Shown: positions 3,001 through 64,000 of the stretch, piece after piece
How positions within the stretch are numbered: the stretch's first letter is position 1
How the letters are laid out: each line of letters starts with the position of its first letter
From: Eledone cirrhosa
Taxonomy: Eukaryota
Length of the DNA: 64,000 nt
Assembly: GCA_964016885.1 (NCBI GenBank)
Contig: OZ024744.1
Coordinates: 118,544,001 to 118,608,000, forward strand
Direction: 5' to 3'
Notes under the pieces: model-generated
What the model saw: only the letters and a program-made list of their open reading frames with translations
Told to the model about the DNA's origin: nothing
The model's database searches: none
Made by a program: the position numbers and the translations under genes

Positions 3001-6000
3001 TTTTAAAGGATGCAGTGTCTTGACAGCTTATAACTGATGCAGCGTGTTTGTTCCATGGAGGTTTTAAAGGATGCAGTGTCTCGACAGTTAACAACTGATG
3101 CAGGTAGTCTGTTCCATGGAGCTTTTAAAGGATGCAGTGTCTCGACAGCTAACAACTGATGCAGGTAGTTTTTTCCATGGGTGTTTTAAAGGATGCAGTG
3201 TATTGACAGCTAATTATTGATGCAGGGAATTTGTTCCATGGAGCTTTTAGAGGATGCAGTGTCTCGACAGCTAACAACTGATGCAGGTAGTTTGTTCCAT
3301 GGGTGTTTTAAAGGATGCAGTGTCTCGACAGCTAACAACTGATGCAGGTAGTTTCTTCCATAGAGGTTTTAAAGGATGCAGTGTTTCGACAGCTAATAAC
3401 TGATGCAGGTATTTTGTTCCATGGAGGTTTTAAAGGATGCAGTCTCTCAATAACTAATAACTGATGCTGGTAGTTTGTTCCATGGAGGTTTTAAAGGATG
3501 CAGTGTCTCGACAGCTAATAACTGATGCAGGTATTTTGTTCCATGGAGGTTTTAAAGGATGCAGTCTCTCGACAGCTAATAACTGATGCAGCTAGTTTGT
3601 TCCATGGAGGTTTTAAAGGATGCAGTGTCTTGACAGCTAATAAATGATGCTGGTAGTTTGTTCCATGGACGTTTTAAAGATACTGTGTCTTGACAGCTAA
3701 TAACTGATGCAGGTAGTTTTTTCCATGGAAGTTTTAAAGGATGTAGTGTCTCGACAGCTAATAAATGATGCTGGCAGTTTCTTCCATGGAGGTTTTAAAG
3801 GATGCAGTGTCTCGACAGCTATCAACTGATGCAGGTAGTCTGTTCCATGGGTGTTTTAAAGGATGCAGTGTCTCGACAGCTAACAACTGATGCAGGTAGT
3901 TTGTTCCATGGAGGTTTTAAAGGATGCAGTGACTCGACAGCTAATAACTGATGCAGGTAGTTTGTTCTATGGAGGTTTTAAAGGATGCAGTCTCTTGACA
4001 GCTAACAACTGATGCAGCCAACTTGTTCCATGGAGGTTTTAAAAAATGCAGTGTCTCGACAGCTAATAAATGATGCTAGTAGTTTGTTCCATGGAGGTTT
4101 TAAAGGATGCAGTGTCTCGACAGCTAACAACTGATGCAGGTAGTTTGTTCCATGGCGGTTTTAAAGATTGCAGCGTCTCGACAGCTAATAACTGATGTAG
4201 GTAGTTTGTTCCATGGAGGTTTTAAAGAATGCAGTGTCTCGACAGTTAACAACTGATGCAGGTAGTCTGTTCCATGGAGCTTTTAAAGGATGCAGTGTCT
4301 CGACAGCTAATAACTGATGCAGGTAGTTTGTACCATGGAGGTTTTAAAGGATGCAGTGTCTCGACAGCTAATAACTTATGCAGGTAGTTTGTTCCATGGG
4401 GGTTTTAAAGGATGCAGTGTCTCGACAGCTAACAACTGATGCAGGTAGTTTCTTCCATGGAGGTTTTAAAGATGCAGTGTCTCGACAGCTAATAATTGAT
4501 GCAGGGTATTTGTTCCATGGAGCTTTTAAAGGATGCAGTCTCTTGACAGCTAACAACTGATGCAGGTAGTTTGTTCCATGGAGGTTTTAAAGGATGCAGT
4601 GTCACAACAGCTTATAACTGATGCAGGTATTTTGTTCCATTGAGGTTTTAAAGGATGCAGTGTCTTGACAGCTAATAAATGATGTTGGTAGTTTGTTCCA
4701 TGGAGGTTTTAAAGGATGCAGTGTCTCGACAGCTAATAACTGATGCAGGTAGTTTGTTCCATGGAGGTTTTAAAGGATGCAGTGTCTCAATAACTAACAA
4801 CTGATGCAGCGAGTTTGGTGCATGGAAGTTTTAAAGGATGCAGTGTCTCGACAGCTAATAACTGATGCAGGTATTTTGTTCCATGGAGGTTTTAAAGGAT
4901 GCAATTTCTCGACAGCTAATAACTGATGCAGGTAGTTTGTTCCATGGAGCTTTTAAAGGATGCAGTGTCTCGACAGCTAACAACTGATGCAGCGACTTTG
5001 TTCCATGGAGGTTTTAAAAAATGCAGTGTCTCGACAGCTAATAATTGATGCTAGTAGTTTGTTCCATGGAGGTTTTAAAGGATGCAGTGTCTCGACAGCT
5101 AACAACTGATGCAGGTATTTTGTTCCATGGAGGTTTTAAAGAGTGCAGCGTCTCGACAGCTAATAACTGATGTAGGTAGTTTGTTCCATGGAGGTTTTAA
5201 AGGATGCAGTGTCTCGACATTTAACAACTGATGGAGGTAGTCTGTTCCATGGAGCTTTTAAAGGATGCAGTGTCTCGACAGCTAATAACTGATGCAGGTA
5301 GTTTGTTCCATGGAGGTTTTAAAGGATGCAGTGTCTCGACAGCTAATAACTGATGCTGGTAGTATGTTCCATGGGGGTTTTAAAGGATGCAGTGTCTCGA
5401 CAGCTAACAACTGATGCAGGTAGTTTCTTCCATGGAGGTTTTAAAGATGCAGTGTCTCGACAGCTAATAATTGATGCAGGGTATTTGTTCCATGGAGCTT
5501 TTAAAGGATGCAGTCTCTTGACAGCTAACAACTGATGCAGGTAGTTTGTTCCATGGAGGTTTTAAAGGATGCAGTGTCACAACAGCTTATAACTGATGCA
5601 GGTAGTTTGTTCTATGGAGGTTTTAAAGGATGCAGTGTCTCGACAGCTAATAACTGATGCTGGTAATTTGTTCCATGGAGGTTTTAAAGGATGCAGTATC
5701 TCGACAGCTAATAACTGATGATGGTAGTTTGTTCCATGGAGGTTTTATAGGATGCAGTGTCTCGACAGCTAACAACTGATGCAGGTAGTTTGGTCCATGG
5801 AGGTTTTAAAGGATGCAGTGTCTCGACAGCTAATAACTGATGCAGGTATTTTGTTCCATTGAGGTTTTAAAGGATGCAGTCTCTCGACAGCTAATAACTG
5901 ATGCAGCTAGTTTGTTCCATGGAGGTTTTAAAGGATGCAATGTCTTGACAGCTAATAAATGATGCTGGTAGTTTGTTCCATGGAGGTTTTAAAGGATGCA

Positions 6001-9000
6001 GTGTCTCGACAGCTAATAACTGATGCAGGTAGTTTGTTCCATGGAGCTTTTAAAGGATGCAGTGTCTCAACAGCTAACAACTGATGCAGGTAGTTTGTTC
6101 CATGGAGGTTTTAAAGGATGCAGTGTCTCAATAACTAACAACTGATGCAGCGAGTTTGGTCCATGGAAGTTTTAAAGGATGCAGTGTCTCGACAGCTAAT
6201 AACTGATGCAGGTATTTTGTTCCATGGAGGTTTTAAAGGATGCAGTGTCTCGACTGCTAATAACTGATGCAGGTAGATTGTTGTATGCAGGTTTTAAAGG
6301 ATGCAGTGTTTCGACAGTTAACAACTGATGCAGGTAGTCTGTTCCATGGAGCTTTTAAAGGATGCAGTCTCTTGACAGCTAACAACTGATGCAGGGAGTT
6401 TGTTCCATGGAGCATTTAAAGGATGCAGTGTCTCGACAGCTAACAACTGATGCAGGTAGTCTGTTCCATGGAGGTTTTAAAGGATGCAGTGTCTCGACAG
6501 CTAATAACTTATGCAGGTAGTTTCTTCCATGGAGGTTTTAAAGGATGCAGTGTCTCGACAGCTAATAAATGATGCTGGTAGTTTCCTCCATGGAGCTTTT
6601 AAAGGATGCAGTGTCTCGACAGCTAATAACTGATGCAGGTAGTTTGTTCCATGGAGATTTTAAAGTAGCAGTGTCTCGACAGCTAACAACTGATGCAGGT
6701 AGTCTGTTCCATGGAGGTTTTAAAGGATGCAGTGTCTCGACTGCTAATAAATGATGCTGGTAGTTTCTTCCATGGAGGTTTTAAAGGATGCAGTGTCTCG
6801 ACAGCTAACAACTGATGCAGGTAGTTTGTTCCATGGAGGTTTTAAAGGATGCAGTGTCTCGACAGCTAACAACTGACGCAGCGACTTTGTTCCATGGAGG
6901 TTTTAAAAAATGCAGTGTCTCGACAGCTAATAAATGATGCTAGTAGTTTGTTCCATGGAGGTTTTAAAGGATGCAGTGTCTCGACAGCTAACAACTGATG
7001 CAGGTAGTTTGTTCCATGGAGGTTTTAAAGGGTGCAGCGTCTCGACAGCTAATAACTGATGTAGGTAGTTTGTTCCATGGAGGTTTTAAAGGATGCAGTG
7101 TCTCGACAGTTAACAACTGATGCAGGTAGTCTGTTCCATGGAGCTTTTAAAGGATGCAGTGTCTCGACAGCTAATAACTGATGCAGGTAGTTTGTTCCAT
7201 GGAGGTTTTAAAGGATGCAGTGTCTCGACAGCTAATAACTGATGCTGGTAGTTTGTTCCATGGGGGTTTTAAAGGATGCAGTGTCTCGACAGCTAACAAT
7301 TGATGCAGGTAGTTTCTTCCATGGAGGTTTTAAAGATGCAGTGTCTCGACAGCTAATAATTGATGCAGGGTATTTGTTCCATGGAGCTTTTAAAGGATGC
7401 AGTCTCTTGACAGCTAACAACTGATGCAGGTAGTTTGTTCCATGGAGGTTTTAAAGGATGCAGTGTCACAACAGCTTATAACTGATGCAGGTAGTTTGTT
7501 CTATGGAGGTTTTAAAGGATGCAGTGTCTCGACAGCTAATAACTGATGCTGGTAGTTTGTTTCATGGAGGTTTTAAAGGATGCAGTGTCTCGACAGCTAA
7601 CAACTGATGCAGGTAGTTTGGTCCATGGAGGTTTTAAAGGATGCAGTGTCTCGACAGCTAACAACTGATGCAGGTAGTTTGTTCCATGGAGGTTTTAAAG
7701 GATGCAGTGTCACAACAGCTTATAACTGATGCAGGTAGTTTGTTCTATGGAGGTTTTAAAGGATGCAGTCTCTCGACAGCTAATAACTGATGCAGCTAGT
7801 TTGTTCCATGGAGGTTTTAAAGGATGCAGTGTCTTGACAGCTAATAAATGATGCTGGTAGTTTGTTCCATGGAGGTTTTAAAGGATGCAGTGTCTCGACA
7901 GCTAATAACTGATGCAGGTAGTTTGTTCCATGGAGCTTTTAAAGGATGCAGTGTCTCAATAACTAACAACTGATGCAGGTAGTTTGTTCCATGGAGGTTT
8001 TAAAGGATGCAGTGTCTCAATAACTAACAACTGATGCAGCGAGTTTGGTCCATGGAAGTTTTAAAGGATGCAGTGTCTCGACAGCTAATAACTGATGCAG
8101 GTATTTTGTTCCATGGAGGTTTTAAAGGATGCAGTTTCTCGACAGCTAATAACTGATTCAGGTAGTTTGTTCCATGGAGCTTTTAAAGGATGCAGTGTCT
8201 CAATAACTAATAACTGATGCAGGTAGATTGTTGTATGCAGGTTTTAAAGGATGCAGTGTCTCGACAGTTAACAACTGATGCAGGTAGTCTGTTCCATGGA
8301 GCTTTTAAAAGATGCAGTGTCTTGACAGCTAACAACTGATGCAGGTAGTTTGTTCCATGGAGGTTTTAAAGGATGCAGTGTCTCGACAGCTAACAATTGA
8401 TGCAGGTAGTTTGTTCCATGCAGGTTTTAAAGGATAAAGTGTCTCGACAGCTAATAACTGATGCAGGTAGTTTGTTCCATGGAGGTTTTAAAGGATGTAG
8501 TATCTCGATAGCTAACAACTGATGCAGCGAGTTTGTTCCATGGAGGTGTTAAAAAATGCAGTGTCTCGACAGCTCATAAATGATGCAGGTAGTTTGTTCC
8601 ATGGAGGTTTTAAAGGATGCAGGGTCTCGACAGCTAACAACTGATGCAGGTAGTTTGTTCCATGGAGGTTTTAAAGGATGCAGTGTCTTGACAGCTTATA
8701 ACTGATGCAGCGTGTTTGTTCCATGGAGGTTTTAAAGGATGCAGTGTCTCGACAGCTAATAACTGATGCAGGTATTTTGTTCGATGGAGGTTTTAAAGGA
8801 TGCAGTGTCTCGACTGCTAATAACTGATGCAGGTAGATTGTTGTATGCAGGTTTTAAAGGATGCAGTGTTTCGACAGTTAACAACTGATGCAGGTAGTCT
8901 GTTCCATGGAGCTTTTAAAGGATGCAGTCTCTTGACAGCTAACAACTGATGCAGGGAGTTTGTTCCATGGAGCATTTAAAGGATGCAGTGTCTCGACAGC

Positions 9001-12000
9001 TAACAACTGATGCAGGTAGTCTGTTCCATGGAGGTTTTAAAGGATGCAGTGTCTCGACAGCTAATAACTTATGCAGGTAGTTTCTTCCATGGAGGTTTTA
9101 AAGGATGCAGTGTCTCGACAGCTAATAAATGATGCTGGTAGTTTCCTCCATGGAGCTTTTAAAGGATGCAGTGTCTCGACAGCTAATAACTGATGCAGGT
9201 AGTTTGTTCCATGGAGATTTTAAAGTAGCAGTGTCTCGACAGCTAACAACTGATGCAGGTAGTCTGTTCCATGGAGGTTTTAAAGGATGCAGTGTCTCGA
9301 CTGCTAATAAATGATGCTGGTAGTTTCTTCCATGGAGGTTTTAAAGGATGCAGTGTCTCGACAGCTAACAACTGATGCAGGTAGTTTGTTCCATGGAGGT
9401 TTTAAAGGATGCAGTGTCTCGACAGCTAACAACTGACGCAGCGACTTTGTTCCATGGAGGTTTTAAAAAATGCAGTGTCTCGACAGCTAATAAATGATGC
9501 TAGTAGTTTGTTCCATGGAGGTTTTAAAGGATGCAGTGTCTCGACAGCTAACAACTGATGCAGGTAGTTTGTTCCATGGAGGTTTTAAAGGGTGCAGCGT
9601 CTCGACAGCTAATAACTGATGTAGGTAGTTTGTTCCATGGAGGTTTTAAAGGATGCAGTGTCTCGACAGTTAACAACTGATGCAGGTAGTCTGTTCCATG
9701 GAGCTTTTAAAGGATGCAGTGTCTCGACAGCTAATAACTGATGCAGGTAGTTTGTTCCATGGAGGTTTTAAAGGATGCAGTGTCTCGACAGCTAATAACT
9801 GATGCTGGTAGTTTGTTCCATGGGGGTTTTAAAGGATGCAGTGTCTCGACAGCTAACAATTGATGCAGGTAGTTTCTTCCATGGAGGTTTTAAAGATGCA
9901 GTGTCTCGACAGCTAATAATTGATGCAGGGTATTTGTTCCATGGAGCTTTTAAAGGATGCAGTCTCTTGACAGCTAACAACTGATGCAGGTAGTTTGTTC
10001 CATGGAGGTTTTAAAGGATGCAGTGTCACAACAGCTTATAACTGATGCAGGTAGTTTGTTCTATGGAGGTTTTAAAGGATGCAGTGTCTCGACAGCTAAT
10101 AACTGATGCTGGTAGTTTGTTTCATGGAGGTTTTAAAGGATGCAGTGTCTCGACAGCTAACAACTGATGCAGGTAGTTTGGTCCATGGCGGTTTTAAAGG
10201 ATGCAGTGTCTCGACAGCTAACAACTGATGCAGGTAGTTTGTTCCATGGAGGTTTTAAAGGATGCAGTGTCACAACAGCTTATAACTGATGCAGGTAGTT
10301 TGTTCTATGGAGGTTTTAAAGGATGCAGTCTCTCGACAGCTAATAACTGATGCAGCTAGTTTGTTCCATGGAGGTTTTAAAGGATGCAGTGTCTTGACAG
10401 CTAATAAATGATGCTGGTAGTTTGTTCCATGGAGGTTTTAAAGGATGCAGTGTCTCGACAGCTAATAACTGATGCAGGTAGTTTGTTCCATGGAGCTTTT
10501 AAAGGATGCAGTGTCTCAATAACTAACAACTGATGCAGGTAGTTTGTTCCATGGAGGTTTTAAAGGATGCAGTGTCTCAATAACTAACAACTGATGCAGC
10601 GAGTTTGGTCCATGGAAGTTTTAAAGGATGCAGTGTCTCGACAGCTAATAACTGATGCAGGTATTTTGTTCCATGGAGGTTTTAAAGGATGCAGTTTCTC
10701 GACAGCTAATAACTGATTCAGGTAGTTTGTTCCATGGAGCTTTTAAAGGATGCAGTGTCTCAATAACTAATAACTGATGCAGGTAGATTGTTGTATGCAG
10801 GTTTTAAAGGATGCAGTGTCTCGACAGTTAACAACTGATGCAGGTAGTCTGTTCCATGGAGCTTTTAAAAGATGCAGTGTCTTGACAGCTAACAACTGAT
10901 GCAGGTAGTTTGTTCCATGGAGGTTTTAAAGGATGCAGTGTCTCGACAGCTAACAATTGATGCAGGTAGTTTGTTCCATGCAGGTTTTAAAGGATAAAGT
11001 GTCTCGACAGCTAATAACTGATGCAGGTAGTTTGTTCCATGGAGGTTTTAAAGGATGTAGTATCTCGATAGCTAACAACTGATGCAGCGAGTTTGTTCCA
11101 TGGAGGTGTTAAAAAATGCAGTGTCTCGACAGCTCATAAATGATGCAGGTAGTTTGTTCCATGGAGGTTTTAAAGGATGCAGGGTCTCGACAGCTAACAA
11201 CTGATGCAGGTAGTTTGTTCCATGGAGGTTTTAAAGGATGCAGTGTCTTGACAGCTTATAACTGATGCAGCGTGTTTGTTCCATGGAGGTTTTAAAGGAT
11301 GCAGTGTCTCGACAGTTAACAACTGATGCAGGTAGTCTGTTCCATGGAGCTTTTAAAGGATGCAGTGTCTCGACAGCTAACAACTGATGCAGGTAGTTTT
11401 TTCCATGGGTGTTTTAAAGGATGCAGTGTATTGACAGCTAATTATTGATGCAGGGAATTTGTTCCATGGAGCTTTTAGAGGATGCAGTGTCTCGACAGCT
11501 AACAACTGATGCAGGTAGTTTGTTCCATGGGTGTTTTAAAGGATGCAGTGTCTCGACAGCTAACAACTGATGCAGGTAGTTTCTTCCATAGAGGTTTTAA
11601 AGGATGCAGTGTTTCGACAGCCAATAACTGATGCAGGTATTTTGTTCCATGGAGGTTTTAAAGGATGCAGTCTCTCAATAACTAATAACTGATGCTGGTA
11701 GTTTGTTCCATGGAGGTTTTAAAGGATGCAGTGTCTCGACAGCTAATAACTGATGCAGGTATTTTGTTCCATGGAGGTTTTAAAGGATGCAGTCTCTCGA
11801 CAGCTAATAACTGATGCAGCTAGTTTGTTCCATGGAGGTTTTAAAGGATGCAGTGTCTTGACAGCTAATAAATGATGCTGGTAGTTTGTTCCATGGACGT
11901 TTTAAAGATACTGTGTCTTGACAGCTAATAACTGATGCAGGTAGTTTTTTCCATGGAAGTTTTAAAGGATGTAGTGTCTCGACAGCTAATAAATGATGCT

Positions 12001-12504
12001 GGCAGTTTCTTCCATGGAGGTTTTAAAGGATGCAGTGTCTCGACAGCTATCAACTGATGCAGGTAGTCTGTTCCATGGGTGTTTTAAAGGATGCAGTGTC
12101 TCGACAGCTAACAACTGATGCAGGTAGTTTGTTCCATGGAGGTTTTAAAGGATGCAGTGACTCGACAGCTAATAACTGATGCAGGTAGTTTCTTACATGG
12201 AGGTTTTAAAGGATGCAGTGTCTCGGCAGCTAACAACTGATGCAGGTAGTTTGTTCCATGGGTGTTTTAAAGGATGCAGTATCTCGACAGCTAACAACTG
12301 ATGCAGGTAGTTTGTTCCATGGAGGTTTTAAAGGATGCAGTGTCTCGACAGCTAACAACTGATGCAGGGAGTTTGTTCCATGGAGGCTTTAAAGGATGCA
12401 GTGTCTTGACAGCTAACAACTGATGCAGGTAGTTTGTTCCATGGAGGTTTTAAAGGATGCAGTGTCTCAATAACTAACAACTGATGTAGGTAGTTTGTTC
12501 CATG
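1..12504. repeat. 61-bp tandem satellite (~205 monomers, open at the left window edge) derived from the C-terminal codons of the adjacent CR1-like LINE ORF2
   Basis: Consensus TGTTCCATGGAGGTTTTAAAGGATGCAGTGTCTCGACAGCTAA(C/T)AACTGATGCAGGTAGTT repeats continuously. The minus strand reads WNKLPASVVSCRDTASFKTSM and runs directly out of LINE ...HYFTLRVAEAWNKLP at 12504. Confidence 0.97.
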
Positions 12505-24775: not shown

Positions 24776-24932
24776 ATGAAGAAATCTGTACCTGTGGGTA
24801 GACACACCAAATCTGTACAACCATTGTGGGTTAAATCAGACGAACTTGCGCAGAAGAATGGTGTACGTCACACTGTTTATTCCGTGAACGGTGACCAGTT
24901 TACGGGAGAATGGTTCGACAATAAGAAACACG
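24776..24932 (+). CDS. MORN3: MORN repeat-containing protein 3-like, first coding exon
   Basis: [52 protein letters not shown](G) resembles the MORN3 N-terminus (LWK.WD.KAQ.NG.R..VY.VNGD.Y.GEW.DN.KHG). Phase-1 donor G|GTATAA at 24933. The start codon is inferred. Confidence 0.85.
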
Positions 24933-25642
24933 GTATAAAAGTTGATATCATATATTTTTATCGTTATTATTATAGAACACTCCACTTGAACACAAAAAGT
25001 CGTAGGTAAAAGTCCGAGTGGAGGTAGTTATCCGAGAGGCAGGGGACCAACCACACCCCTTCCGCCCTTGATTACCAAAATCTTAAAGGTTAGATTAGTT
25101 GATTACACGAAAAAAAATTCCACCCCACTAAAATGGAGTGGCGTGTTCTATAAATTTACCTTTTTTTTCTGTGTAACATGAATATAAGTATTGATATTAT
25201 TATTATATATTTTCTCATCCGGCAGGGGTCGCTCGCTGGCGGGGAGGGACTTCGCGGCCTCCTATCTGTGGAAACAATGGGGCTGGGGGAGCTGCCCCTT
25301 GGGACAGGCGAAGGTTGTGCGATGTGGGGGTGCCTGGGCAACTGGGATCTGGTGTTGGTCGTACGGAGATCAATCTTGCAAAATGGGGATATTTAACGGA
25401 TATGGACATAGTGTGTGACTGCGGTATCAAATCACAAACTACGCAGCACCTGATATGACCCCCTGCTGGAACACCCCTGTACAGCATTGGACTAAGTACA
25501 GTCTAATGAGAAAGGACAGCAATGTGTTCAGTTGTGGTGGAACCACATCTAGCCAAGCTTTGTAGCTGACACTCTTGTGGATATGAGAAGAATCTGGTGG
25601 GGAATATACGTATATAAATGTAGTGCTGTAAAGAAGATTTAA

Positions 25643-26750
25643 GTGGAGGTATGTGGTGGCCTAGTAGTAAGGGTGTTAGACCGGGTTGTGTGTTGTGTTC
25701 TTGAACAAAACACTACATTTCACATTACTCCAGTATACTACAGTGGAGGTATGTGGTGGCCTAGTGGTAAGGGTGTTAGACCGGGTTATGTGTTGTGTTC
25801 TTGAACAAAACACTACATTTCACATTACTCCAGTATACAACAGTGGAGGTCTGTGGTGGCCTAGTAGTAAGGGTGTTAGACTGGGTTGTGTGTTGTGTTC
25901 TTGAACAAAACACTACATTTCACATTACTCCAGTATACTACAGTGGAGGTATGTGGTGGCCTAGTGGTAAGGTTATTAGAGTGGGTTGTGTGTTGTGTTC
26001 TTGAACAAAACACTACATTTCACATTACACCAGTATACTACAGTGGAGGTATGTGGTGGCCTAGTGGTAAGGGTGTTAGACTGGGTTGTGTGTTGTGTTC
26101 TTGAACAAAACACTTCATTTCACATTACTCCAGTATACTACAGTAGAGGTATGTGGTGGCTTAGTGGTAAGGGTGTTAGACTGGGTTGTGTGTTGTGTTC
26201 TTGAACAAAACACTACATTTCACATTACTCCAGTATACTACAGTGGAGGTATGTGGTGGCCTAGTGGTAAGGGTGTTAGACTGGGTTGTGTGTTGTGTTC
26301 TTGAACAAGACACTTCATTTCACATTACTCCAGTATACGACAGTGAAGGTATGTGGTGGCCTAGTAGTAAGGGTGTTAGACTGGGTTGTGTGTTGTGTTC
26401 TTGAACAAAACACTACATTTCACATTACTCCAGTATACTACAGTGGAGGTATGTGGTGGCCTAGTAGTAAGGGTGTTAGACTGGGTTGTGTGTTGTGTTC
26501 TTGAACAAAACACTTCATTTCACATTACTCCAGTATACTACAGTGGAGGTATGTGGTGGCCTAGTGGTAAGGGTGTTAGACTAGGTTGTGTGTTGTGTTC
26601 TTGAACAAAACACTTCATTTCACATTACTCCAGTATACTACAGTGGAGGTATGTGGTGGCCTAGTGGTAAGGGTGTTAGACTGGGTTGTGTGTTGTGTTC
26701 TTCAACAAAACACTACATTTCACATTACTCCAGTATACTACAGTGGAGGT
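25643..26750 (+). repeat. 100-bp tandem array (11 units) derived from a B-box-deleted tRNA-SINE head
   Basis: Unit GTGGAGGTATGTGGTGGCCTAGTGGTAAGGGTGTTAGACTGGGTTGTGTGTTGTGTTCTTGAACAAAACACTACATTTCACATTACTCCAGTATACTACA, exact 100-bp period. Similar to the SINE at 20725-20845. Confidence 0.93.
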
Positions 26751-26789
26751 ATATATATATATATCTTATAAGAAACACAAAATATTGTA

Positions 26790-53779: not shown

Positions 53780-54825
53780 TACTACCTCACCTGTATTACC
53801 TCCCCTATTACCTGCCCTGTATTTCTATTCCCCTGTATTACCTCCCCTGTACTACTACCTCTCCTGTATTACCTCCCCTGCATTACCTCCTCTGTACTAC
53901 TAGCTCCCCCATGTTACCTCTCCTGTATTACTACCCCTGTACTACTACATCCCCTGTATTACGTCTCCTGTACTATTACCTTACCTGTACTACTACCTCC
54001 CCTGTATTACCTCCCCTGTACTACTACCTCCCCTGTACTACCTCCCCTGTATTACTACCTCCCTGTATTACCTCCCCTGTACTACCCCCCCCCCTGTATT
54101 ACCTCACCTGTATTACCTCCCCTGTACCACTACCTCCCCTGTACTACTACCTCCTCTGTATTACCTCCCCTGTACTACCTCCCCTGTACTACTACCCCCC
54201 CCCCTGTATTACCTCCCCTGTATTACCTCTGCTGTACTACCTCCCCTGTATCACCTCCCCTGTACTATTCCACTGTACTACCTCCCCTGTATTACCCCCT
54301 GTACTACCTCCCCTGTATTACTACCTCCACTGTATTACTACCTCCCCTGTATTACTACCTCCCCTGTATTACTACCTCCACTGTATTACTACCTCCCCTG
54401 TATTACTACCTCCACTGTATTACTACCTCCCCTGTATTACTACCTCCACTGTATTACTACCTCCCCTGTATTACTACCTCCACTGTATTACTACCTCCCC
54501 TGTATTACTACCTCCCCTGTATTACTACCTCCCCTGTATTACTACCTCCCCTGTATTACTACCTCCACTGTATTACTACCTCCCCTGTACTGCCTCCCCT
54601 GTACTACTACCTCCTCTGTACTCCTACCTCCCCTTTACTACTACCTCCCCTGTACTACTCCACCACCTGTATTACTACCTCCACTGTACTGCCTCCCCTG
54701 TACTACTACCTCCCCTGTACTACTACCTCCCCTGTATTACTACCTCCTCTGTACTACCTCCCCTGTATTACTACCTCCTCTGTACTACCTCCCCTGTATT
54801 ACCTCCCCTGTGTTACCTCACCTGT
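53780..54825. repeat. Degenerate short-period minisatellite (CTACCTCCCCTGTATTA-like, 14-17 bp units)
   Basis: Repeated TACCTCCCCTGTA(T/C)TAC motifs. Confidence 0.93.
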
Positions 54826-54968
54826 TTAATAATCACCTCTAAAGTAAAGAATATCAACTGATTTTGAGAAATATCTTCTATTGATTAAGTATGCTTATAC
54901 TATAAGCATACTTATAGTAACCTGTAGGAAAATGAAAAGTTAATGAGTTCGTTTTGTTTCTGAAATAG

Positions 54969-55123
54969 GTAAAGGAACTTACAAATGGAAAAGATCTGGG
55001 AATATGTATGATGGAGATTGGAGTCATGATAAAAGAAATGGATTTGGAACCTTAAGTATTCCAGACAGTCATGGAGGTCTTCGGAAACAGTACGCAGGAG
55101 GTTGGAAAAATGACAGGCGACAT
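54969..55123 (+). CDS. MORN3: MORN3-like coding exon 2
   Basis: Acceptor TAG|GT at 54968 completes the phase-1 Gly. KGTYKWKRSGNMYDGDWSHDKRNGFGTLSIPDSHGGLRKQYAGGWKNDRRH. Donor CAT|GTAAGA, phase 0. Confidence 0.92.
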
Positions 55124-55450: not shown

Positions 55451-55610
55451 GGTTATGGCGCCCATTTTTACAATTCCGAGGAATATTATGAAGGAGAATG
55501 GTATTGTGACAAAAGGAGTGGTTGGGGTCGGATGTATTATACTGATGGTAGTATCTATGAAGGAGAATGGTATGATGGAATGAGATTTGGACAAGGCATG
55601 TTACGGTTAG
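55451..55610 (+). CDS. MORN3: MORN3-like coding exon 3
   Basis: Acceptor TTCTCAG|. GYGAHFYNSEEYYEGEWYCDKRSGWGRMYYTDGSIYEGEWYDGMRFGQGMLRL. Donor G|GTTGGT at 55611. MORN repeats YEGEW..G...G.G. Confidence 0.92.
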
Positions 55611-55630
55611 GTTGGTGTTTCAGACGAATA

Positions 55631-55852
55631 TCCTTCCTCCATCTCCTCCTTCTTTGCCCACCTAGTCCTGAGTGGGTTAGGGGGTCAGAGTCCTCAAATA
55701 CTTCTAGCAGGTCCTGTCGGAAGCAACCATCTGCAGCTGATCCGGCTGGATCCCTAAGCAAAACCAGCCAAGCTCATGGATGTTATCCAACCATCTTGCT
55801 CCCGTTCTACCCCTGGGTCTTCTGTTGGTTGGTTTTACCTGTAAAATCTGTC
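55631..55852 (-). mobile_element. 3' end of an Expander/Rex3-like RTE LINE, contiguous with the 64-bp satellite
   Basis: Minus strand reads VRMSQERISGQILQVKPTNRRPRGRTGARWLDNIHELGWFCLGIQPDQLQMVASDRTC, matching the RTE C-terminal pattern P.GRRPRGRPR.RW.D....L.W..LGI.P..L..VA.DR. Confidence 0.85.
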
Positions 55853-58800
55853 CAGAGATTCTTTCCTGAGACATTCTAACTACATGTCATAGTATCAGAG
55901 CTGTGATCTCTCAATTCAATGTTTCTTTCCTGAGACATTCTAACCACGTGTCATAGTATCAGAGCTGTTATCTCTCAATTCAATGTTTCTTTCCTGAGAC
56001 ATTCTAACCACGTGTCATAGTATCAGAGCTGCGATCTCTCAATTCAGTGATTCTTTTCTGAGACATTCTAACTACATGTCATAGTATCAGAGCCGTGATC
56101 TCTCAATTCACAGATTCTTTCCTGAGACATCCTAACCACATGTCTGTAGTATCAGAGCTGTGATCTCTCAATTCAGAGATTCTTTCCTGAGACATTCTAA
56201 CTACATGTCATAGTATCAGAGCTGTGATCTCTAAATTCAGAGATTCTTTTCTGAGACATCCTAACCACATGTCTATAGTATCAGAGCTGTGATCTCTCAA
56301 TTCAGAGATTCTTTCCTGCGATATTCTAACCACATGTCACAGTATCAGAGCTGTGATCTCTCAATTCAGAGATTCTTTCCTGAGACATTCTAACCACATG
56401 TCATAGTATCAGAGCTGTGATCTCTCAATTCAGAGATTCTTTCCTGAGACATTCTAACCACATGTCATAGTATCAGAGCTGTGATCTCTCAATTCAGAGA
56501 TTCTTTCCTGAGACATTCTAACCACATGTCACAGTATCAGAGCTGTGATCTCTCAATTCAGAGATTCTTTCCTGAGACATTCTAACCACATGTCATAGTA
56601 TCAAAGGTGTGATCTCTCAATTCAGAGATTCTTTCCTGAGACATTCTAACCACATGTCAAAGTATCAGAGCTGTGATCTCTAAATTCAGTGATTCTTTCC
56701 TGTGACATTCTAACCACATGTCATAGTATCAGAGCTGTGGTCTCTCAACTCAGAGTTTCTTTCCTGTGACATTCTAACCACATGTCTGTAGTATCACAGC
56801 TGTGATCTCTGAATTCAGAGATTCTTTCCTGAGACATTCTAACTACATGTCATAGTATTAGAGCTGTGATCTCTTAATTTAGAGATTCTTTTCTGAGTCA
56901 TTCTAACCACATGTCTATAATATCAGAGCTGTGAACTCTCAATTCAATGTTTCTTTCCTGAGACATTCTAACCACATGTCATAGTATCAGAGCTGTGATC
57001 TCTCAATTCAGAGATTCTTTCCTGAGACATTCTAACTACATGTCATAGTATCAGAGCTGTTATCTCTCAATTCAGAGATTCTTTCCTGAGACATTCTAAC
57101 CACATGTCATAGTATCAGAGCTGTTATCTCTCAATTCAGAGATTCTTTCCTGAGACATTCTAACCACGTGTCATAGTATCAGAGCTGTTATCTCTCAATT
57201 CAATGTTTCTTTCCTGAGACATTCTAACCACGTGTCATAGTATCAGAGCTGCGATCTCTCAATTCAGTGATTCTTTTCTGAGACATTCTAACTACATGTC
57301 ATAGTATCAGAGCCGTGATCTCTCAATTCACAGATTCTTTCCTGAGACATTCTAAACACATATCATAGTATCAGAGCTGTGATCTCTCAATTCAGAGATT
57401 CTTTCCTGAGACATCCTAACCACATGTCTGTAGTATCAGAGCTGTGATCTCTCAATTCAGAGATTCTTTCCTGAGACATTCTAACTACATGTCATAGTAT
57501 CAGAGCTGTGATCTCTAAATTCAGAGATTCTTTTCTGAGACATCCTAACCACATGTCTGTAATATCAGAGCTGTGATCTCTCAATTCAGAGATTCTTTCC
57601 TGAGACATTCTAACCACATGTCACAGTATCAGAGCTGTGATCTCTCAATTCAGAGATTCTTTCCTGAGACATTCTAACCACATGTCATAGTATCAAAGCT
57701 GTGATCTCTCAATTCAGAGATTCTTTCCTGAGACATTCTAACCACATGTCAAAGTATCAGAGCTGTGATCTCTAAATTCAGTGATTCTTTCCTGTGACAT
57801 TCTAACCACATGTCATAGTATCAGAGCTGTGGTCTCTCAACTCAGAGTTTCTTTCCTGTGACATTCTAACCACATGTCTGTAGTATCACAGCTGTGATCT
57901 CTGAATTCAGAGATTCTTTCCTGAGACATTCTAACTACATGTCATAGTATTAGAGCTGTGATCTCTTAATTTAGAGATTCTTTTCTGAGTCATTCTAACC
58001 ACATGTCTATAGTATCAGAGCTGTGATCTCTCATTTCATAGATTCTTTCATGAGACATTCTAACCACATGTCATAGTATCAGAGCAGTGATGTCTCAATT
58101 CAGAGATTCTTTCCTGGGACATTCTAACCACATGTCATAGTATCAGAGCTGTGATCTCTCAATTCACAAATTCTTTCCAGAGACATTCTAACCACAGGTC
58201 ATAGTATCAGAGCTGTGATCTCTCATTTCAGAGTTTCTTTCCTAAGACATTTTAACCACATGTCATAGTATCAGAGCTGTGATCTCCCAATTCAGAGACT
58301 CTCTCCTGAGACATTCTAACCACATGTCTGTAGTATCAGAGCTGTGATCTCCCAATTCAGAGACTCTCTCCTGAGACATTCTAACCACATGCCCATAGAT
58401 AGAATTAGAGCTGTGATACCTCAATTTAGAGATTCTTTCCTGAGTCATTCTAACTACATGTCATAGTAGCAGAGCTGTGATCTCTCAATTCACAGATTCT
58501 TTCATGAGTCATTCTAACTACATGTCATAGTATCAGAGCTGTGATCTCTCAATTCACAGATTCTTTCCTTTAGTCATTCTAACCACATGTCATAGATTCA
58601 GAGCTGTGATCTCTCAATTCACAGATTCTTTTCTTGAGTCATTCTAACCACATGTCATAGTATCAGAGCCGTGATCTCTCAATTCACAGATTCTTTCCTG
58701 AGACATTCTAACTACATGTCAAAGAATCAGAGCTGTGATCTCTCATTTCAGAGATTCTTTCCTGAGACATTTGAACCACATGCCCATAGAATCAGAGCTA

Positions 58801-61800
58801 TGATATCTTAATTCAGAGATTCTTTCCTGAGACGTTCTAAACATATGTCTATAGTATCACAGCTGTGATCTCTGAATTCAGAGATTCTTTCCAAAGACAT
58901 TCTAACCACATGTTTGTAGTATTAGAGCTGTGATCTCTCAATTCACAGATTCTTTCCTGAGACATTCTAACCACATGTCATAGTGTCAGAGCTGTGAGCT
59001 CTCGTTTCAGAGTTTCTTTCCTAAGACATTTTACCCACATGTCATAGTATCAGAGCTGTGATCTCTAAATTCAGAGATTCTTTCCTGAGACATTCTAACC
59101 ACATGTCATAGTATCAGAGCTGTGATCTCTAACTTCACAGATTCTTTCCTGAGACATTCTAACCACATGTCATAGTATCAGAGCTGTGATCTCTCAATTC
59201 AGAGATTCTTTCCTGAGACATTCTAACCACATGTCAAAGAATCAGAGCTGTGATCTCTCATTTCAGATATTCTTTCCTGAGACATTTGAACAACATGCCC
59301 ATAGAATCAGAGCTATGATATCTTAATTCAGAGATTCTTTCCTGAGACGTTTTAAACATATGTCTATAGTATCACAGCTGTGATCTCTGAATTCAGAGGT
59401 TCTTTCCAGAGACATTCTAACCACATGTCTGTAGTATCACAGCTGTGATCTCTGAATTCAGAGATTCTTTCCTGAGACATTCTAACCACATGTCCATAGT
59501 ATCAGAGCTGTGATCTCTGAATTCAGAGATTCTTTCCTGAGACATTCTAAACATATGTCTATAGTATCACAGCTGTGATCTCTGAATTCAGAGATTCTTT
59601 CCAGAGACATTCTAACCACATGTTTGTAGTATTACAGCTGTGATCTCTCAATTTAGAGATTCTTTTCTGAGTCATTCTAACCACATGTCCATAGTATCAG
59701 AGCTGTGATCTCTCATTTCATAGATTCTTTCCTGAGACATTCTAACCACAGGTCATAGTATCAGAGCTACCATCTCTCAATTGAGAGATTCTTTCCTGAG
59801 ATTTTTCAACACATGTCATAATATCAGAACTGTGATCTCTCAATTCAGAGATTCTTTCCTGAGACATTCTAACCAAATGTCTGTAATATCAGAGCTGTGA
59901 TCTCTCAATCCAATGATTATTTTTTGAGCCATTCTAACCCATGTCCATACTATCAGAGCTGTGATCTCTTAATCCAGAGATTCTTTCCTGAGATATTCTA
60001 ACCACATGTCATAGTATCAGAGCTGTGATCTCTCAATTCAGTGATTCTTTCCTGAGACATTCTAACCACATGTCATAGTATCAGGGCTGTGATCTCTAAA
60101 TTCAGAGATTCTTTCCTGAGACATTCTAACCACATGTCATAGTATCAGAGCTGTGATCTCTTAATTCAGAGATTCTTTCCTGAGACATTCTAACCACATG
60201 TCATAGTATCAGAGTTGTGATCTCTCAATTCAGAGATTCTTTCCTGAGACATTCTAACTACATGTCATATTATCAGAGCTGTGATCTCTAAATTCAGAGA
60301 TTCTTTCCTGAGACATTCTAACCACATATCATAGTATCAGAGCTGTGATCTCTAAATTCACAGATTCTTTCCTGAGACATTCTAACTGCATGTCAAAGAA
60401 TCAGAGCTGTGATCTCTCATTTCAGATATTCTTTCCTGAGAAATTTGAACAACATGCCCATAGAATCAGAGCTATGATATCTTAATTCAGAGATTCTTTC
60501 CTGAGACGTTTTAAACATATGTCTATAGTATCACAGCTGTGATCTCTGAATTCAGAGATTCTTTCCTGAGACATTCTAACCACATGTTTGTAGTATTAGA
60601 GCTGTGATCTCTCAATTTAGAGATTCTTTTCTGAGACATTCTAACCACATGTCCGTAGTATCAGAGCTGTGATCTCTCATTTCATAGATTCTTTCCTGAG
60701 ACATTCTAACCACATGTCATAGTATCAGAGCTGTGATGTCTCAATTCAGAGATTCTTTCCTCAGACATTCTAACCACATGTCATAGTATCAGAGCTGTGA
60801 TCTCTCAATTCCCAGATTCTTTCCTGATACATTCTAACCACAGGTCATAGTATCAGAGCTGTGATCTCTCAATTCAGAGATTCTTTCCTGAGACATTCTA
60901 ACCACATATCTGCAGTATCACAGCTGTGATCACTGAATTCAGAGATTCTTTCCTGAGACATTCTAACCACATGTCATATTATCAGATCTGTGGACTCTCA
61001 ATTCGCAGATTCTTTCTTGAGACATTCTATCCACATGTCATAGTATCAGAGCTGTGATCTCTCAATTCAGAGACTCTCTCCAGAGACATTCTAACCACAT
61101 GCCTATAGAATTAGCGCTGTGATACCTCAATCCAGAGATTTTTTCTTGAGACATTCTAACCTCATGTCATATATCAGAACTGTGATCTCTCAATTCAGAG
61201 ATTCTTTCCTGAGTCATTCTAACCAAATGTCCATAGTATCAGAGCTGTCATCTCTCAATTCAGAGATTCTTTCCTGAGACATTCTAACCACATGTCATAG
61301 TATCAGAGCTGTGATCTCTTAATTCAGAGATTCTTTCCAGAGACATTCTAACCACAGGTCATAGTATCAGAGCTGTGATCTCTCAATTCAGAGATTCTTT
61401 CCTGAGACATTCTAACCACATATCTGCAGTATCACAGCTGTGATCTCTGAATTCAGAGATTCTTTCCTAAGACATTCTAACCACATGTCATATATCAGAA
61501 CTGTGATCTCTCAATTCAGAGATTCTTTCCTGAGTCATTCTAACCAAATGTCCATAGTATCAGAGCTGTCATCTCTCAATTCACAGATTCTTTCCTGAGA
61601 CATTCTAACCACATGTCATAGTATCAGAGCTGTGATCTCTCAATTCAGAGATTCTTTCCTGAGTCATTCTAACCACATATCATAGTATCAGAGCTATGAT
61701 ATCTTAATTCAGAGATTCTTTCCTGAGACGTTTTAAACATGTCTATAGTATCACAGCTGTGATCTCTGAATTCAGAGATTCTTTCCTGAGTCATTCTAAA

Positions 61801-64000
61801 CATATGTCTATAGTATCACAGCTGTGATCTCTGAATTCAGAGATTCTTTCCTGAGACATTCTAAACATATGTCTATAGTATCACAGCTGTGATCTCTGAA
61901 TTCAGAGATTCTTTCCGGAGACATTCTAACCACATGTCTGTAGTATCACAACTGTGATCTCTCAATTCACAGATTCTTTCCTGAGACATTTTAACCACAT
62001 GTCAGAGTATCAGAGCTGTGATCTCTCAATTTAGAGATTGTTTCCTGAGTCATTCTAACCACATGTCCATATTATCAGAGCTGTGATCTCTCAATTCAGG
62101 GATTCTTTACCGAGACATTATAACCACATGTTATAGTATCAGAGCTGTGATCTCTCAATTCAGAGATTCTTTCTTGAGACATTCTAAACATATGTCTATA
62201 GTATCACAGCTGTGATATCTGAATTCAGAGATTCTTTCCAGAGTCATTCTAACCACATGTCCATAGTATCAGAGCTGTGATATCTTAATCGAGAGATTCT
62301 TTCCTGAGACATTCCAACTGCATGTCTATACTATCAGGGCTGTGATCTCTCAATTCAGAGATTCTTTCCTGAGACATTATAACCACATGTTATAGTATCA
62401 GAGCTGTGATCTCTCAATTCAGAGATTCTTTCCTGAGACATTCTAACCACATGTCTGTAGTATTGGAGCTGTGATCTCTCAATTCAGAGATTCTTTCCTG
62501 AGACATTTTAACCACATGTCATAGTATCAGAGCTGTCATCTCTCAATTGATAGATTCTTTCCTGAGACATTCTAACCACATGTCAACGATTCAGAGCTAT
62601 CATCTCTCAATTCAGAGATTCTTTCCTGAGATTTTTAAACACATGTCATAGTATCAGAGCTGTGATCTCTCATTTCATAGATTCTTTCCTGAGACATTCT
62701 AACCACATTCATAATATCAGAGCTGTGAACTCTGAATTCAGAGTTTCTTTCCATAGACATTCTAACCACACGTCTGTAGTATCACAGCTGTGATCTCTCA
62801 ATTCAGTGATTCTTTCCTGAGACATTCTAACAACATGTCATAGTATCAGAGCTGTGATCTCTCAATTCAGTGATTCTTTCCCTAACCACATGTCATAGTA
62901 TCAGAGCTGTGATCTCTCAATTCAGAGATTCTTTCCTGAGACATTCTAACAACATGTCATAGTATCAGAGCCGTGATCTCTCAATTCAGAGATTCTTTCC
63001 TGAGACTTTCTAACCACATGTCTGTAGTATCACAGCTGTGATCTCTCAATCCAGTGATTATTTTTGGAGCCATTCTAACCCGATGTCCATACTATCAGAG
63101 CTGTGATCTCTTAATCCAGAGATTCTTTCCTGTGACATTTTAACCACATGTCTGTAATATCAGAGCTGTGATCTCTCAATTCAGAGATTCTTTCCTGAGC
63201 CATTCTAACTTCATGTCATAGTATCAGAGCTGTGATCTCCCAATTCAGAGATTCTTTCCTGAGTCGTTCTAACCACATGTCCATAGTATCAGTGCTGTGA
63301 TCTCTCAATTTAGAGATTCTTTCCTGAGACATTCTAACTCCATGTCATAGTATCAGAGCTTTGATCTCTCAATTCATAGATTCTTTCCTGAGATAATCTA
63401 ACCACATGTCCATATTATCAGAGCTGTGATCTCTCAATTCATAGATTCTTTCCTGAGACATTCTAACCACATGTCATAGTATCAGAGCTGTAATCTCTCA
63501 ATTCAGAGATTCTTTCCTGAGACATTCTAACCACATATCATAGTATCAGAGCTATGATCCCTTAATTCAGAGATTCTTTCCTGAGACGTTCTAAACATAT
63601 GTGTATAGTATCACAGCTGTGATCTCTGAATTTAGAGATTCTTTCCTAAGACATTCTAACCACATGTCATAGTATCAGAGCTGTGATCTCTCAATTCAGA
63701 GATTCTTTCCTGAGACATTTTAACCACATGTATAGTATCAGAGCTGTGATGTCTCAATTCACAGATTCTTTCCTGAGATATTCTAACCACATGTCATAGT
63801 ATCAGAGCTGTGATCTCTCAATTCAGAGATTCTTTCCTGAGACATTTTAACCACATGTATAGTATCAGAGCTGTGATCTCTCAATTCAGAGATTCTTTCC
63901 TGAGACATTCTAACCACATGTCATAGTATCACAGAGCTGTGATATCCCAATTCACAGATTCTTTCCTGAGACATTCTAACTACATGTCATAGTATCAGAT
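55853..64000. repeat. 64-bp (63-65 bp variants) tandem satellite, ~127 monomers, open at the right edge, derived from an RTE ORF segment
   Basis: Consensus CAGAGATTCTTTCCTGAGACATTCTAACCACATGTCATAGTATCAGAGCTGTGATCTCTCAATT. The minus strand of the 65-bp variant reads L*IERSQL*YYGHVVRMSQERIS. Confidence 0.96.

Follow-up and report, generated by a model that had tools for sequence, protein, structure and literature searches.

In squamates, sSats consist of part of a SINE repeated in tandem at many loci, with a 67-nt unit in snakes; their units are 89% identical against 64% for copies of the element, one element gives rise to several overlapping unit types, and subtelomeres are preferred (PMC10702118). 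On the Drosophila X chromosome, Rsp-like satellites spread into 1.688 clusters, for which interlocus gene conversion or eccDNA was proposed (PMC7403614). Alu-derived minisatellites mark certain element regions as tandem-duplication hotspots, with short direct repeats as proposed triggers (PMC3389668). Satellites related to LINE coding DNA include chicken HinfI (CR1 ORF2) and hamster PROsat (L1 ORF2) (PMC9659126). The available part of that review names no RTE-derived satellite, the word 'satellite' gave 0 matches in the available text of the O. vulgaris repeat paper (PMC13282606), and no report of an RTE-ORF satellite in a cephalopod was found in the literature searched, which covered few subscription journals.

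The locus described here lies in the window, the 64,000-nucleotide stretch of Eledone cirrhosa DNA that was analysed, and extends past its edge into the sequence L021. Its features are as follows.

24776..24934, plus strand: MORN3 coding exon 1 (tblastn of the Octopus vulgaris homologue P0003, aa 1-53, 87%)
54968..55123, plus strand: MORN3 coding exon 2 (tblastn of P0003; GT donor present)
55451..55610, plus strand: MORN3 coding exon 3 (tblastn match of P0003)
55632..55852, minus strand: single-copy RTE 3' end, made up of the C-terminus of the ORF, a very short 3' UTR and a GAA-like, purine-rich tail (translation; tblastn of P0123 aa 972-1046)
55853..64000 and on to L021:584, minus strand: 64/65-bp tandem array of an RTE ORF segment (IERSQL..HVVRMSQERI), ~136 units in total (TRF)
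L021:585-930: RTE 5' flank, ~80 bp absent beside the array, matching the G000:C28:115.6 Mb copy at 99.1% over 346 bp; putative conversion tract
L021:931-~1053: remnant of the host copy's 5' part, older and decayed, 75% identical to the C28:115.6 Mb copy and 70-78% to five others
L021:1904-~2090, past the window edge: MORN3 coding exon 4, in normal order after exon 3 (tblastn of P0003)
L021:~5540-5603, past the window edge: MORN3 coding exon 5 (tblastn of P0003)

The five exons are colinear with P0003, with identities of 78-88% in four of them and 57% in the short fifth, and the named homologue matches of the gene are mostly MORN3. With three exons in the window, two beyond it, and exons 3 and 4 bracketing the array, the exon coordinates place the array in coding intron 3 of MORN3, as an earlier note on this DNA had proposed; the fourth exon, which that note expected beyond position 64000, was found there. 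The intron opens with GT at 55611, ends at L021:1903 outside the window and measures 10.3 kb, of which the RTE element with its array takes up ~9.4 kb. The host RTE copy is antisense and 5'-truncated, its 3' tail lies ~20 bp from the exon 3 splice donor, and no target-site duplication was recognised at it. The array is most likely without function and is predicted to be removed with the intron by splicing; no phenotype or function is implied by its presence in MORN3.

TRF analysis of the window array gave a period of 64 and 126.7 copies over 55853-63999 (88% matches), and a further 9.2 units (585 bp) lie past the window edge, giving ~8.73 kb and ~136 units for the whole array. Unit intervals (n = 133) were 64 bp in 72 cases, 65 bp in 46 and 63 bp in 8; 115 of the 133 units were distinct, and no higher-order blocks (≥97% identity, ≥250 bp) occurred in the window array. 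The RTE 3' end at this locus is 84-89% identical to 39 other copies, and the upstream RTE frame resumes past 64000, at L021:585-~1050, so the array stands in place between the 5' and 3' parts of one RTE copy, just as had been suggested. The suggested reading frame of the monomer held in part. The reading frame of the terminal unit continues into the single-copy RTE end (HVVRMSQERISGQILQVKPTNRRPRGR), whereas the dominant 64-bp unit lacks one glycine-codon base, which puts IERSQL*YY and HVVRMSQERIS in different frames; family-type letters at that position were present in only 7 of 133 units.

RTE-clade LINEs have a single ORF of ~1000 aa with an AP endonuclease and an RT, a very short 3' UTR with a short repeat at its end, and frequent 5' truncation. 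Full-length relatives of the present family at 59% identity (1047-1049 aa; PF03372/PF14529 and PF00078) display this single-ORF architecture, no intact copy having been seen in the Eledone genome itself. In the Eledone copies GAA-type tails follow the ORF directly, and the 5' ends are staggered. No intact reading frame was found among 150 scored family copies, the longest open frame being 298 aa. These results show that the family is old, abundant, mostly 5'-truncated and without a long open frame among the scored copies, and it looks dead. The unit is held once, upstream of RPRGR, in 61 of the 72 array-free family copies examined, which supports its identification as a segment from within the ORF of an RTE-type LINE; the absence of such a family, which would have refuted the earlier note, was thus not borne out. 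This LINE is also distinct from that of the left array, as previously claimed, since a full-length relative is 59% identical to this family and 29% to the left LINE. The closest named proteins were mainly teleost RTs at 40-53%, including an unlabelled stickleback RT at 52%; the motif [IV]E[RK].QLRW occurred in 42 of 117 matches, and none of the protein matches carried an Expander or Rex3 label. The stickleback RTE is described as one family, Expander (PMC3381678), and the C-terminal order ERSQLRW...RPRGRP is another shared feature. The Expander-like label given earlier thus has indirect support only, and the family differs from Expander of fish in being a decayed octopod family without matches so labelled.

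The earlier note had asked how many other loci carry the array, and at least ~80 were found in the genome, a lower bound obtained from two 40-candidate searches and pattern lists. Among the loci located, C1 arrays lie at 2.9, 20.9, 30.5, 407 and 417 Mb of 443 Mb, with many others on C22-C27 and between 107 and 123 Mb of the 136-Mb C28; the largest noted has 804 units (C28:114.2 Mb). Two comparisons of flanks were made. The first kept 107 loci after removal of 9 duplicate or near-identical loci and of those without 3' flank alignment, and the second, over 195 columns, kept 122 loci after exclusion of those whose border could not be recognised and of the 85- and 123-bp arrays. Over the 195-column 3' flank, pairwise identity was 82.0% in 70 single copies, 80.8% in 28 CAGAC-type arrays and 81.8% in 8 TGAC-type arrays, and the first comparison gave similar values. 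No site was both fixed and diagnostic; one column deviated in 7 of 27 CAGAC loci compared to 0 of 68 singles (P = 1e-4, narrowly failing correction). Common ancestry of the array flanks was rejected, as they formed no clade and had no fixed site. The 5' truncation points vary among array-bearing copies. In 6 of 25 cases with a visible 5' edge, no RTE sequence precedes the array, which begins at the unit or within it; hosts cut inside the unit would need a donor for their arrays.

Unit identity was 92.8% between 35 arrays compared to 86.8% between 61 single copies, the former value being inflated by the choice of array loci by query similarity. A derived CAGAC type (9,020 exact matches), present in neither DNA query, was dominant in 28 of 52 array loci and occurred in 2 of 61 single copies. 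The 64-bp TGAC type was regional: of its 3,045 exact matches, C1-C27 account for only 28, and the part of C28 below 107.15 Mb has none, while it was seen in 12 of 12 other C28 arrays read and in 0 of 61 single copies. Its share rises along C28, with 1/25 units at 107.1 Mb, 15/21 at 115.6 Mb, 57/~127 in the window and 17/22 at 118.8 Mb. Sharing of rare 31-mers with the window array was highest in its four nearest neighbours (93-168 per 1000, compared to 0-77 in the 18 others) and nil in the C28 arrays at 113.02 and 122.6 Mb. On C8, three arrays within 0.5 Mb had units 96-97% identical and flanks 83-87% identical.

The comparison of the window locus with the C28:115.6 Mb copy, 3 Mb away, revealed near-identity on one side of the array only, in single-copy flank. 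There the two match at all but 3 of 346 sites and have a private deletion in common. Outside this tract identity falls to 74.6% on the far 5' side and to 79.2% in the 3' flank, and the host DNA of the two copies is unrelated. MORN3 exons 3 and 4 are still in order, which indicates copying and not a flank swap. A near-identical tract between unrelated flanks without rearrangement, the pattern expected of conversion, was thus found in one case, the only flank-bearing tract among 26 array runs compared. Because neighbours share both units and the 346-bp tract while their other flanks are unrelated, inter-locus transfer is needed. In public sequencing runs, one 109-bp contig was an exact match to the deletion end, which was not counted as evidence; no locus-spanning sequence was present in four public runs containing the RTE family.

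The earlier note had proposed local origin from perfect microhomology, which does not suffice as the whole story. The shared CTCTG is present at the window locus but is not the family state: this border (T state) was found in 298 of 6,098 exact 23-mer borders (4.9%), and family copies have an imperfect match of 5-7 of 8 letters at the unit ends, so a perfect 5-10 bp direct repeat at the parent unit ends is missing. The T border was seen in 23 of 33 arrays with the first query and 9 of 26 with another, an apparent enrichment due in part to query bias, and arrays frequently end on the ordinary G/A border. Among 30 sampled T-border copies, the 65-bp duplication occurred only in one near-identical pair, as a dimer. 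Perfect CTCTG microhomology was therefore rejected as the cause. Secondary structure was likewise rejected as a trigger, since folding z-scores were unremarkable (array dimer -0.90 and +0.86 on the two strands; array-free copy -0.27) and the 65-nt window of the unit was not among the most stable of the element. It is accordingly unlikely that the arrays are of wholly separate origin, each formed within its own RTE copy at a microhomology-bounded duplication hotspot with no exchange between loci. Such origins would account for the identical register of all arrays, for junction letters that vary as from crossovers at different points of imperfect homology, and for the 85- and 123-bp units from the same RTE region that also form arrays; private or ancestral unit types in L140 (99.5% within the array), L180, L033 and L272 are consistent with them as well. 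They cannot account for the 1-bp deletion that a dozen neighbouring arrays have in common and that none of 61 single copies shows, the variant of 2-3 changes found across chromosomes, and the 346-bp tract. Regional variant sharing largely refutes independent origin as the sole mechanism, and for the first seeds it is plausible.

Spread by a non-autonomous RTE master that carried the duplication, with daughters expanding locally, appears still less probable. Some arrays lack the 5' flank as if truncated within the array, and L015 and L019 carry a partial 123-bp duplication at the 5' end; however, array flanks are no closer than random copies and lack a fixed marker, and the family looks dead although the units of neighbouring arrays are up to 96-97% alike. 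LINE retrotransposition is not restricted to a 16-Mb neighbourhood, which also counts against a master. Array-derived eccDNA, excised as circles, possibly amplified by a rolling-circle mechanism and reintegrated by homology into other RTE copies would leave the same end structure with foreign units in a resident copy, and such circles were suggested alongside conversion for Rsp-like (PMC7403614). Homologous reintegration would indeed leave traces similar to conversion, but a circle from within an array would not carry the one-sided single-copy flank of the shared tract, and the regional gradient favours chromosomal proximity; we regard circles as improbable, on a par with purely independent origin. 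Assembly error or plain segmental duplication is the least credible source of the sharing, and very nearly dismissed. Host flank is common, at 91%, to the arrays at C1:2.88 and C1:30.53 Mb but to no other pair among the 26 runs; the tract copies differ at 3/346 sites and each sits beside its own unique DNA, and the 115/133 distinct window units, together with the absence of duplicated blocks (97%, ≥250 bp), also argue against an artefact.

The account we favour, and consider probably correct, is that rare duplications seeded arrays and that inter-locus gene conversion then spread them among dispersed dead copies. The seeding duplications would have occurred in the 65-bp register, aided by imperfect ~8-bp homology at the unit ends, and probably more than once. 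A break in any family copy could then be repaired on an array-bearing copy, with units and sometimes flank copied in, while the recipient would retain its own outer flanks and insertion site; array length would afterwards be altered locally by unequal exchange and slippage. Exchange appears to have taken place mostly among neighbours, at chromosome ends and on small chromosomes. The units of the window array were likely brought in or replaced through gene conversion from nearby array-bearing copies.

Among the known systems, sSats resemble the present satellite in several ways: a single-copy element part serves as the unit, many loci have element-derived ends, units are more alike than element copies, and one element yields more than one unit type. 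It differs from them in that the source is LINE coding sequence and the element often persists on both sides of the array, a minority situation among sSats, and in that regional variant sharing and one tract were measured here, while the terms 'gene conversion' and 'microhomology' are absent from the main text of PMC10702118. As with Rsp-like, a satellite colonises dispersed homologous loci, but here it lands in dead LINE copies that themselves include the unit, whereas there the landing site is another satellite, joined through a hybrid junction (PMC7403614). Alu minisatellites share the duplication hotspots in certain element regions, and differ from the present arrays with their imperfect terminal homology, unit numbers of up to hundreds and variants common between loci (PMC3389668). 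HinfI and PROsat are likewise related to LINE coding DNA (PMC9659126), whereas here the relation of parent to unit is exact, in place, at many loci.

Locus-to-locus movement of satellites is usually argued indirectly, and its footprints are unusually direct here. As every array lies in an old, separately inserted host copy whose flanks mark the recipient, and unit variants mark the donor, ectopic conversion can be mapped by distance and chromosome compartment within one genome. More speculatively, and with real doubt on our part, thousands of dead LINE copies may act as genome-wide landing pads on which the satellite spreads through biased ectopic repair, in the manner of a homing drive that lacks a nuclease; unit variants might then sweep chromosome arms as waves, as the 64-bp type may have done on distal C28, and several satellites of this octopod genome may arise in this way from different LINEs. 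Dead LINE coding DNA also emerges as a repeated source of kilobase arrays within genes, of which MORN3 intron 3 is an example.

The window occupies C28:118,544,001-118,608,000. An Octopus vulgaris MORN3-type protein, the best MORN3-type match of exon 3 (85%), which points to an octopod as the source animal, aligned colinearly to five exons across the window and L021, the DNA directly beyond its right edge. The exons placed by this protein match were:

24776-24934, MORN3 exon 1
54968-55123, MORN3 exon 2
55451-55610, MORN3 exon 3
L021:1904-~2090, beyond the window, MORN3 exon 4
L021:~5540-5603, beyond the window, MORN3 exon 5

As the earlier note proposed, it is intron 3 of the coding region (55611 to L021:1903, 10.3 kb) that houses the array, with exon 3 before it and exon 4 after it. 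Intron 1 (24935-54967, 30 kb) contains several further decayed LINE fragments and a 17-bp array (53780-54811).

TRF detected a period of 64 (126.7 copies, 55853-63999), and the array goes on for 9.2 units beyond the window edge, giving ~8.73 kb and ~136 units in all. Units measured 64 bp (n = 72), 65 bp (n = 46) or 63 bp (n = 8), and 115 of 133 were distinct. On the minus strand, the final unit runs on into the LINE's single-copy C-terminus, and past the array's far end the upstream RTE frame returns, as anticipated beyond 64000, and corresponds there to residues 803-970 in an endonuclease-RT relative 1049 aa long. Since RTE parts are read at both ends, the array sits within a single 5'-truncated antisense RTE copy, of which ~80 bp is absent beside the array at the far (5') end. 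One base is missing from the dominant 64-bp unit, which divides the unit motif earlier quoted as one frame between two.

The 23-mer at the unit's 3' border had 6,098 exact genome matches, and the unit occurred once in 61 of 72 array-free family copies, which upholds its derivation from the RTE. With copies ~82% alike and 298 aa as the maximum open frame in the 150 scored, the family is old and probably dead. Its relatives are single-ORF endonuclease-RT proteins (up to 59%), those with names being mainly teleost RTs (40-53%; stickleback RT, 52%). PMC3381678 gives the stickleback RTE clade as one family, Expander; from the earlier "Expander/Rex3-like", Expander-like can therefore be kept as a fair but indirect label.

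Other tandem arrays near the MORN3 array were:

25642-26752, 100 bp x 11 array
L021-L028 (next 80 kb beyond the window), 48 bp x 329 array
L021-L028, 72 bp x 32 array
L021-L028, 24 bp x 236 array
L021-L028, 73/76-bp array, ~20 kb

The left 61-bp array (window 1-12504; L029-L032) spans at least 52 kb, 40 kb of it upstream of the window, and adjoins the C-terminus of a different LINE, which we take to be CR1/L2-like. One of its 31-mers had 14,617 exact matches, with about a dozen loci within the first 18 Mb of C1 alone, so it too is a multi-locus LINE-derived satellite.

The unit-to-unit junction 33-mer of the MORN3 array had 11,944 exact matches (reversed control, 0). Two genome searches of the 3.0-Gb assembly with array-plus-flank queries were performed, the best 40 candidates being scored in each. 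All 40 from the first aligned across several units plus flank (30 loci fetched and checked); the second gave 39 loci, 33 of them new (28 distinct loci checked). With ~10 more from pattern lists, array loci number at least ~80, and the small overlap between searches suggests, as a rough figure, a few hundred. Clusters were seen on C22-C27, in the distal part of C28 and close to the C1 ends; among unselected family copies on C1, 1 of 30 carried a 65-bp array. At C28:114.227-114.279 Mb (L254-L259), 804 units span 52 kb with RTE flank kept on both sides. The 64-bp type had 2,854 minus-strand matches, pointing to some larger array elsewhere. L263-L265 (C27:22.2, C27:18.1 and C26:19.9 Mb) have the unit's anchor motif at spacings outside 58-70 bp (~98 bp at C27:22.2 Mb) and are possibly further unit types. 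This RTE region also gives rise to arrays of overlapping units of 123 and 85 bp (123-bp junction, 3,197 matches at ≤1 mismatch):

L020, L015, L019, L115, C8:18.05 Mb, C9:8.54 Mb and C10:17.43 Mb, 123-bp satellite
C2:397.66 Mb, 84-bp period among 123-bp-type loci
L006, 85-bp unit

The 3' flanks were independent: identity was 80.8% among 28 CAGAC-type arrays, 81.8% among 8 TGAC-type arrays (the window's 64-bp variant) and 82.0% among 70 single copies. No fixed marker of array-bearing 3' flanks was found among these copies; one column differed (7/27 CAGAC-type array copies vs 0/68 singles), short of multiple-test correction, and 5' ends differ between array-bearing copies. Dispersal by an array-bearing master element seems quite improbable. 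Unit identity was 92.8% between arrays vs 86.8% between single copies, the former inflated by query choice; derived variants are the stronger evidence of sharing. CAGAC was dominant in 28 of 52 arrays; just 2 of 61 single copies had it, and neither query did. The 64-bp type had 3,045 exact matches, 28 of them on C1-C27; on C28 there were none before 107.15 Mb, and the remaining matches lay on distal C28 or later contigs. Each of the 12 other arrays read on C28 carried it, in both orientations, at a frequency that climbed toward 115-123 Mb. These arrays were located via the variant or a window query, so that presence reflects selection, and the test lies in the genome-wide count. Rare 31-mers of the window were shared most with the arrays of its four nearest neighbours, though not at all with two C28 arrays.

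An inverted copy at C28:115.6 Mb matched the window element at 99.1% over 346 bp next to the array, private deletion included, vs 74.6% beyond the tract on the 5' side and 79.2% for the 3' flank, in unrelated host DNA. MORN3 exon order is intact, so the tract was copied, not swapped. No second pair of this kind emerged from the 26 runs compared. Among public sequencing runs, none spans the MORN3 locus. Arrays at C1:2.88 Mb and C1:30.53 Mb have the RTE 3' end and host flank in common (91% over 295 bp), likely through an old segmental duplication; artefact or duplication as the general explanation is highly implausible.

The T required for the perfect CTCTG occurs at 298 of 6,098 family borders, and common border states match the unit's opposite end at 5-7 of 8 positions. 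Among 30 T-border copies sampled, only one near-identical pair had a 65-bp duplication, and 17 of 26 array borders (second query) lacked T. Folding was unremarkable. The microhomology put forward earlier is present here, but the family state is imperfect; imperfect homology may set the register, and the perfect match at this locus was probably produced by the junction.

Given this anatomy, the independent flanks, the regional variants in common and the one tract, we consider it likely that rare 65-bp duplications seed arrays, that homology-directed repair templated by array-bearing copies would spread them, and that unequal exchange would then alter their length locally. Seeding probably occurred more than once, as arrays with private units (L140, L180, L033) suggest. 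The array of an ORF segment does sit inside the RTE copy, but purely local origins of each array are unlikely in view of the regional variants and the 346-bp tract in common; reintegration of circles is about equally unlikely. The array is real and probably non-functional.

The closest kind is the SINE-derived satellites of reptiles (PMC10702118), and Drosophila Rsp-like is the precedent for a satellite's spread to homologous sites at dispersed positions (PMC7403614); Alu hotspots (PMC3389668) and LINE-ORF-related satellites (PMC9659126) are already published. No cephalopod RTE-derived satellite was found in searches of the main texts of mostly open-access papers. The value of this case lies in a clear footprint of satellite transfer among dead LINE copies.
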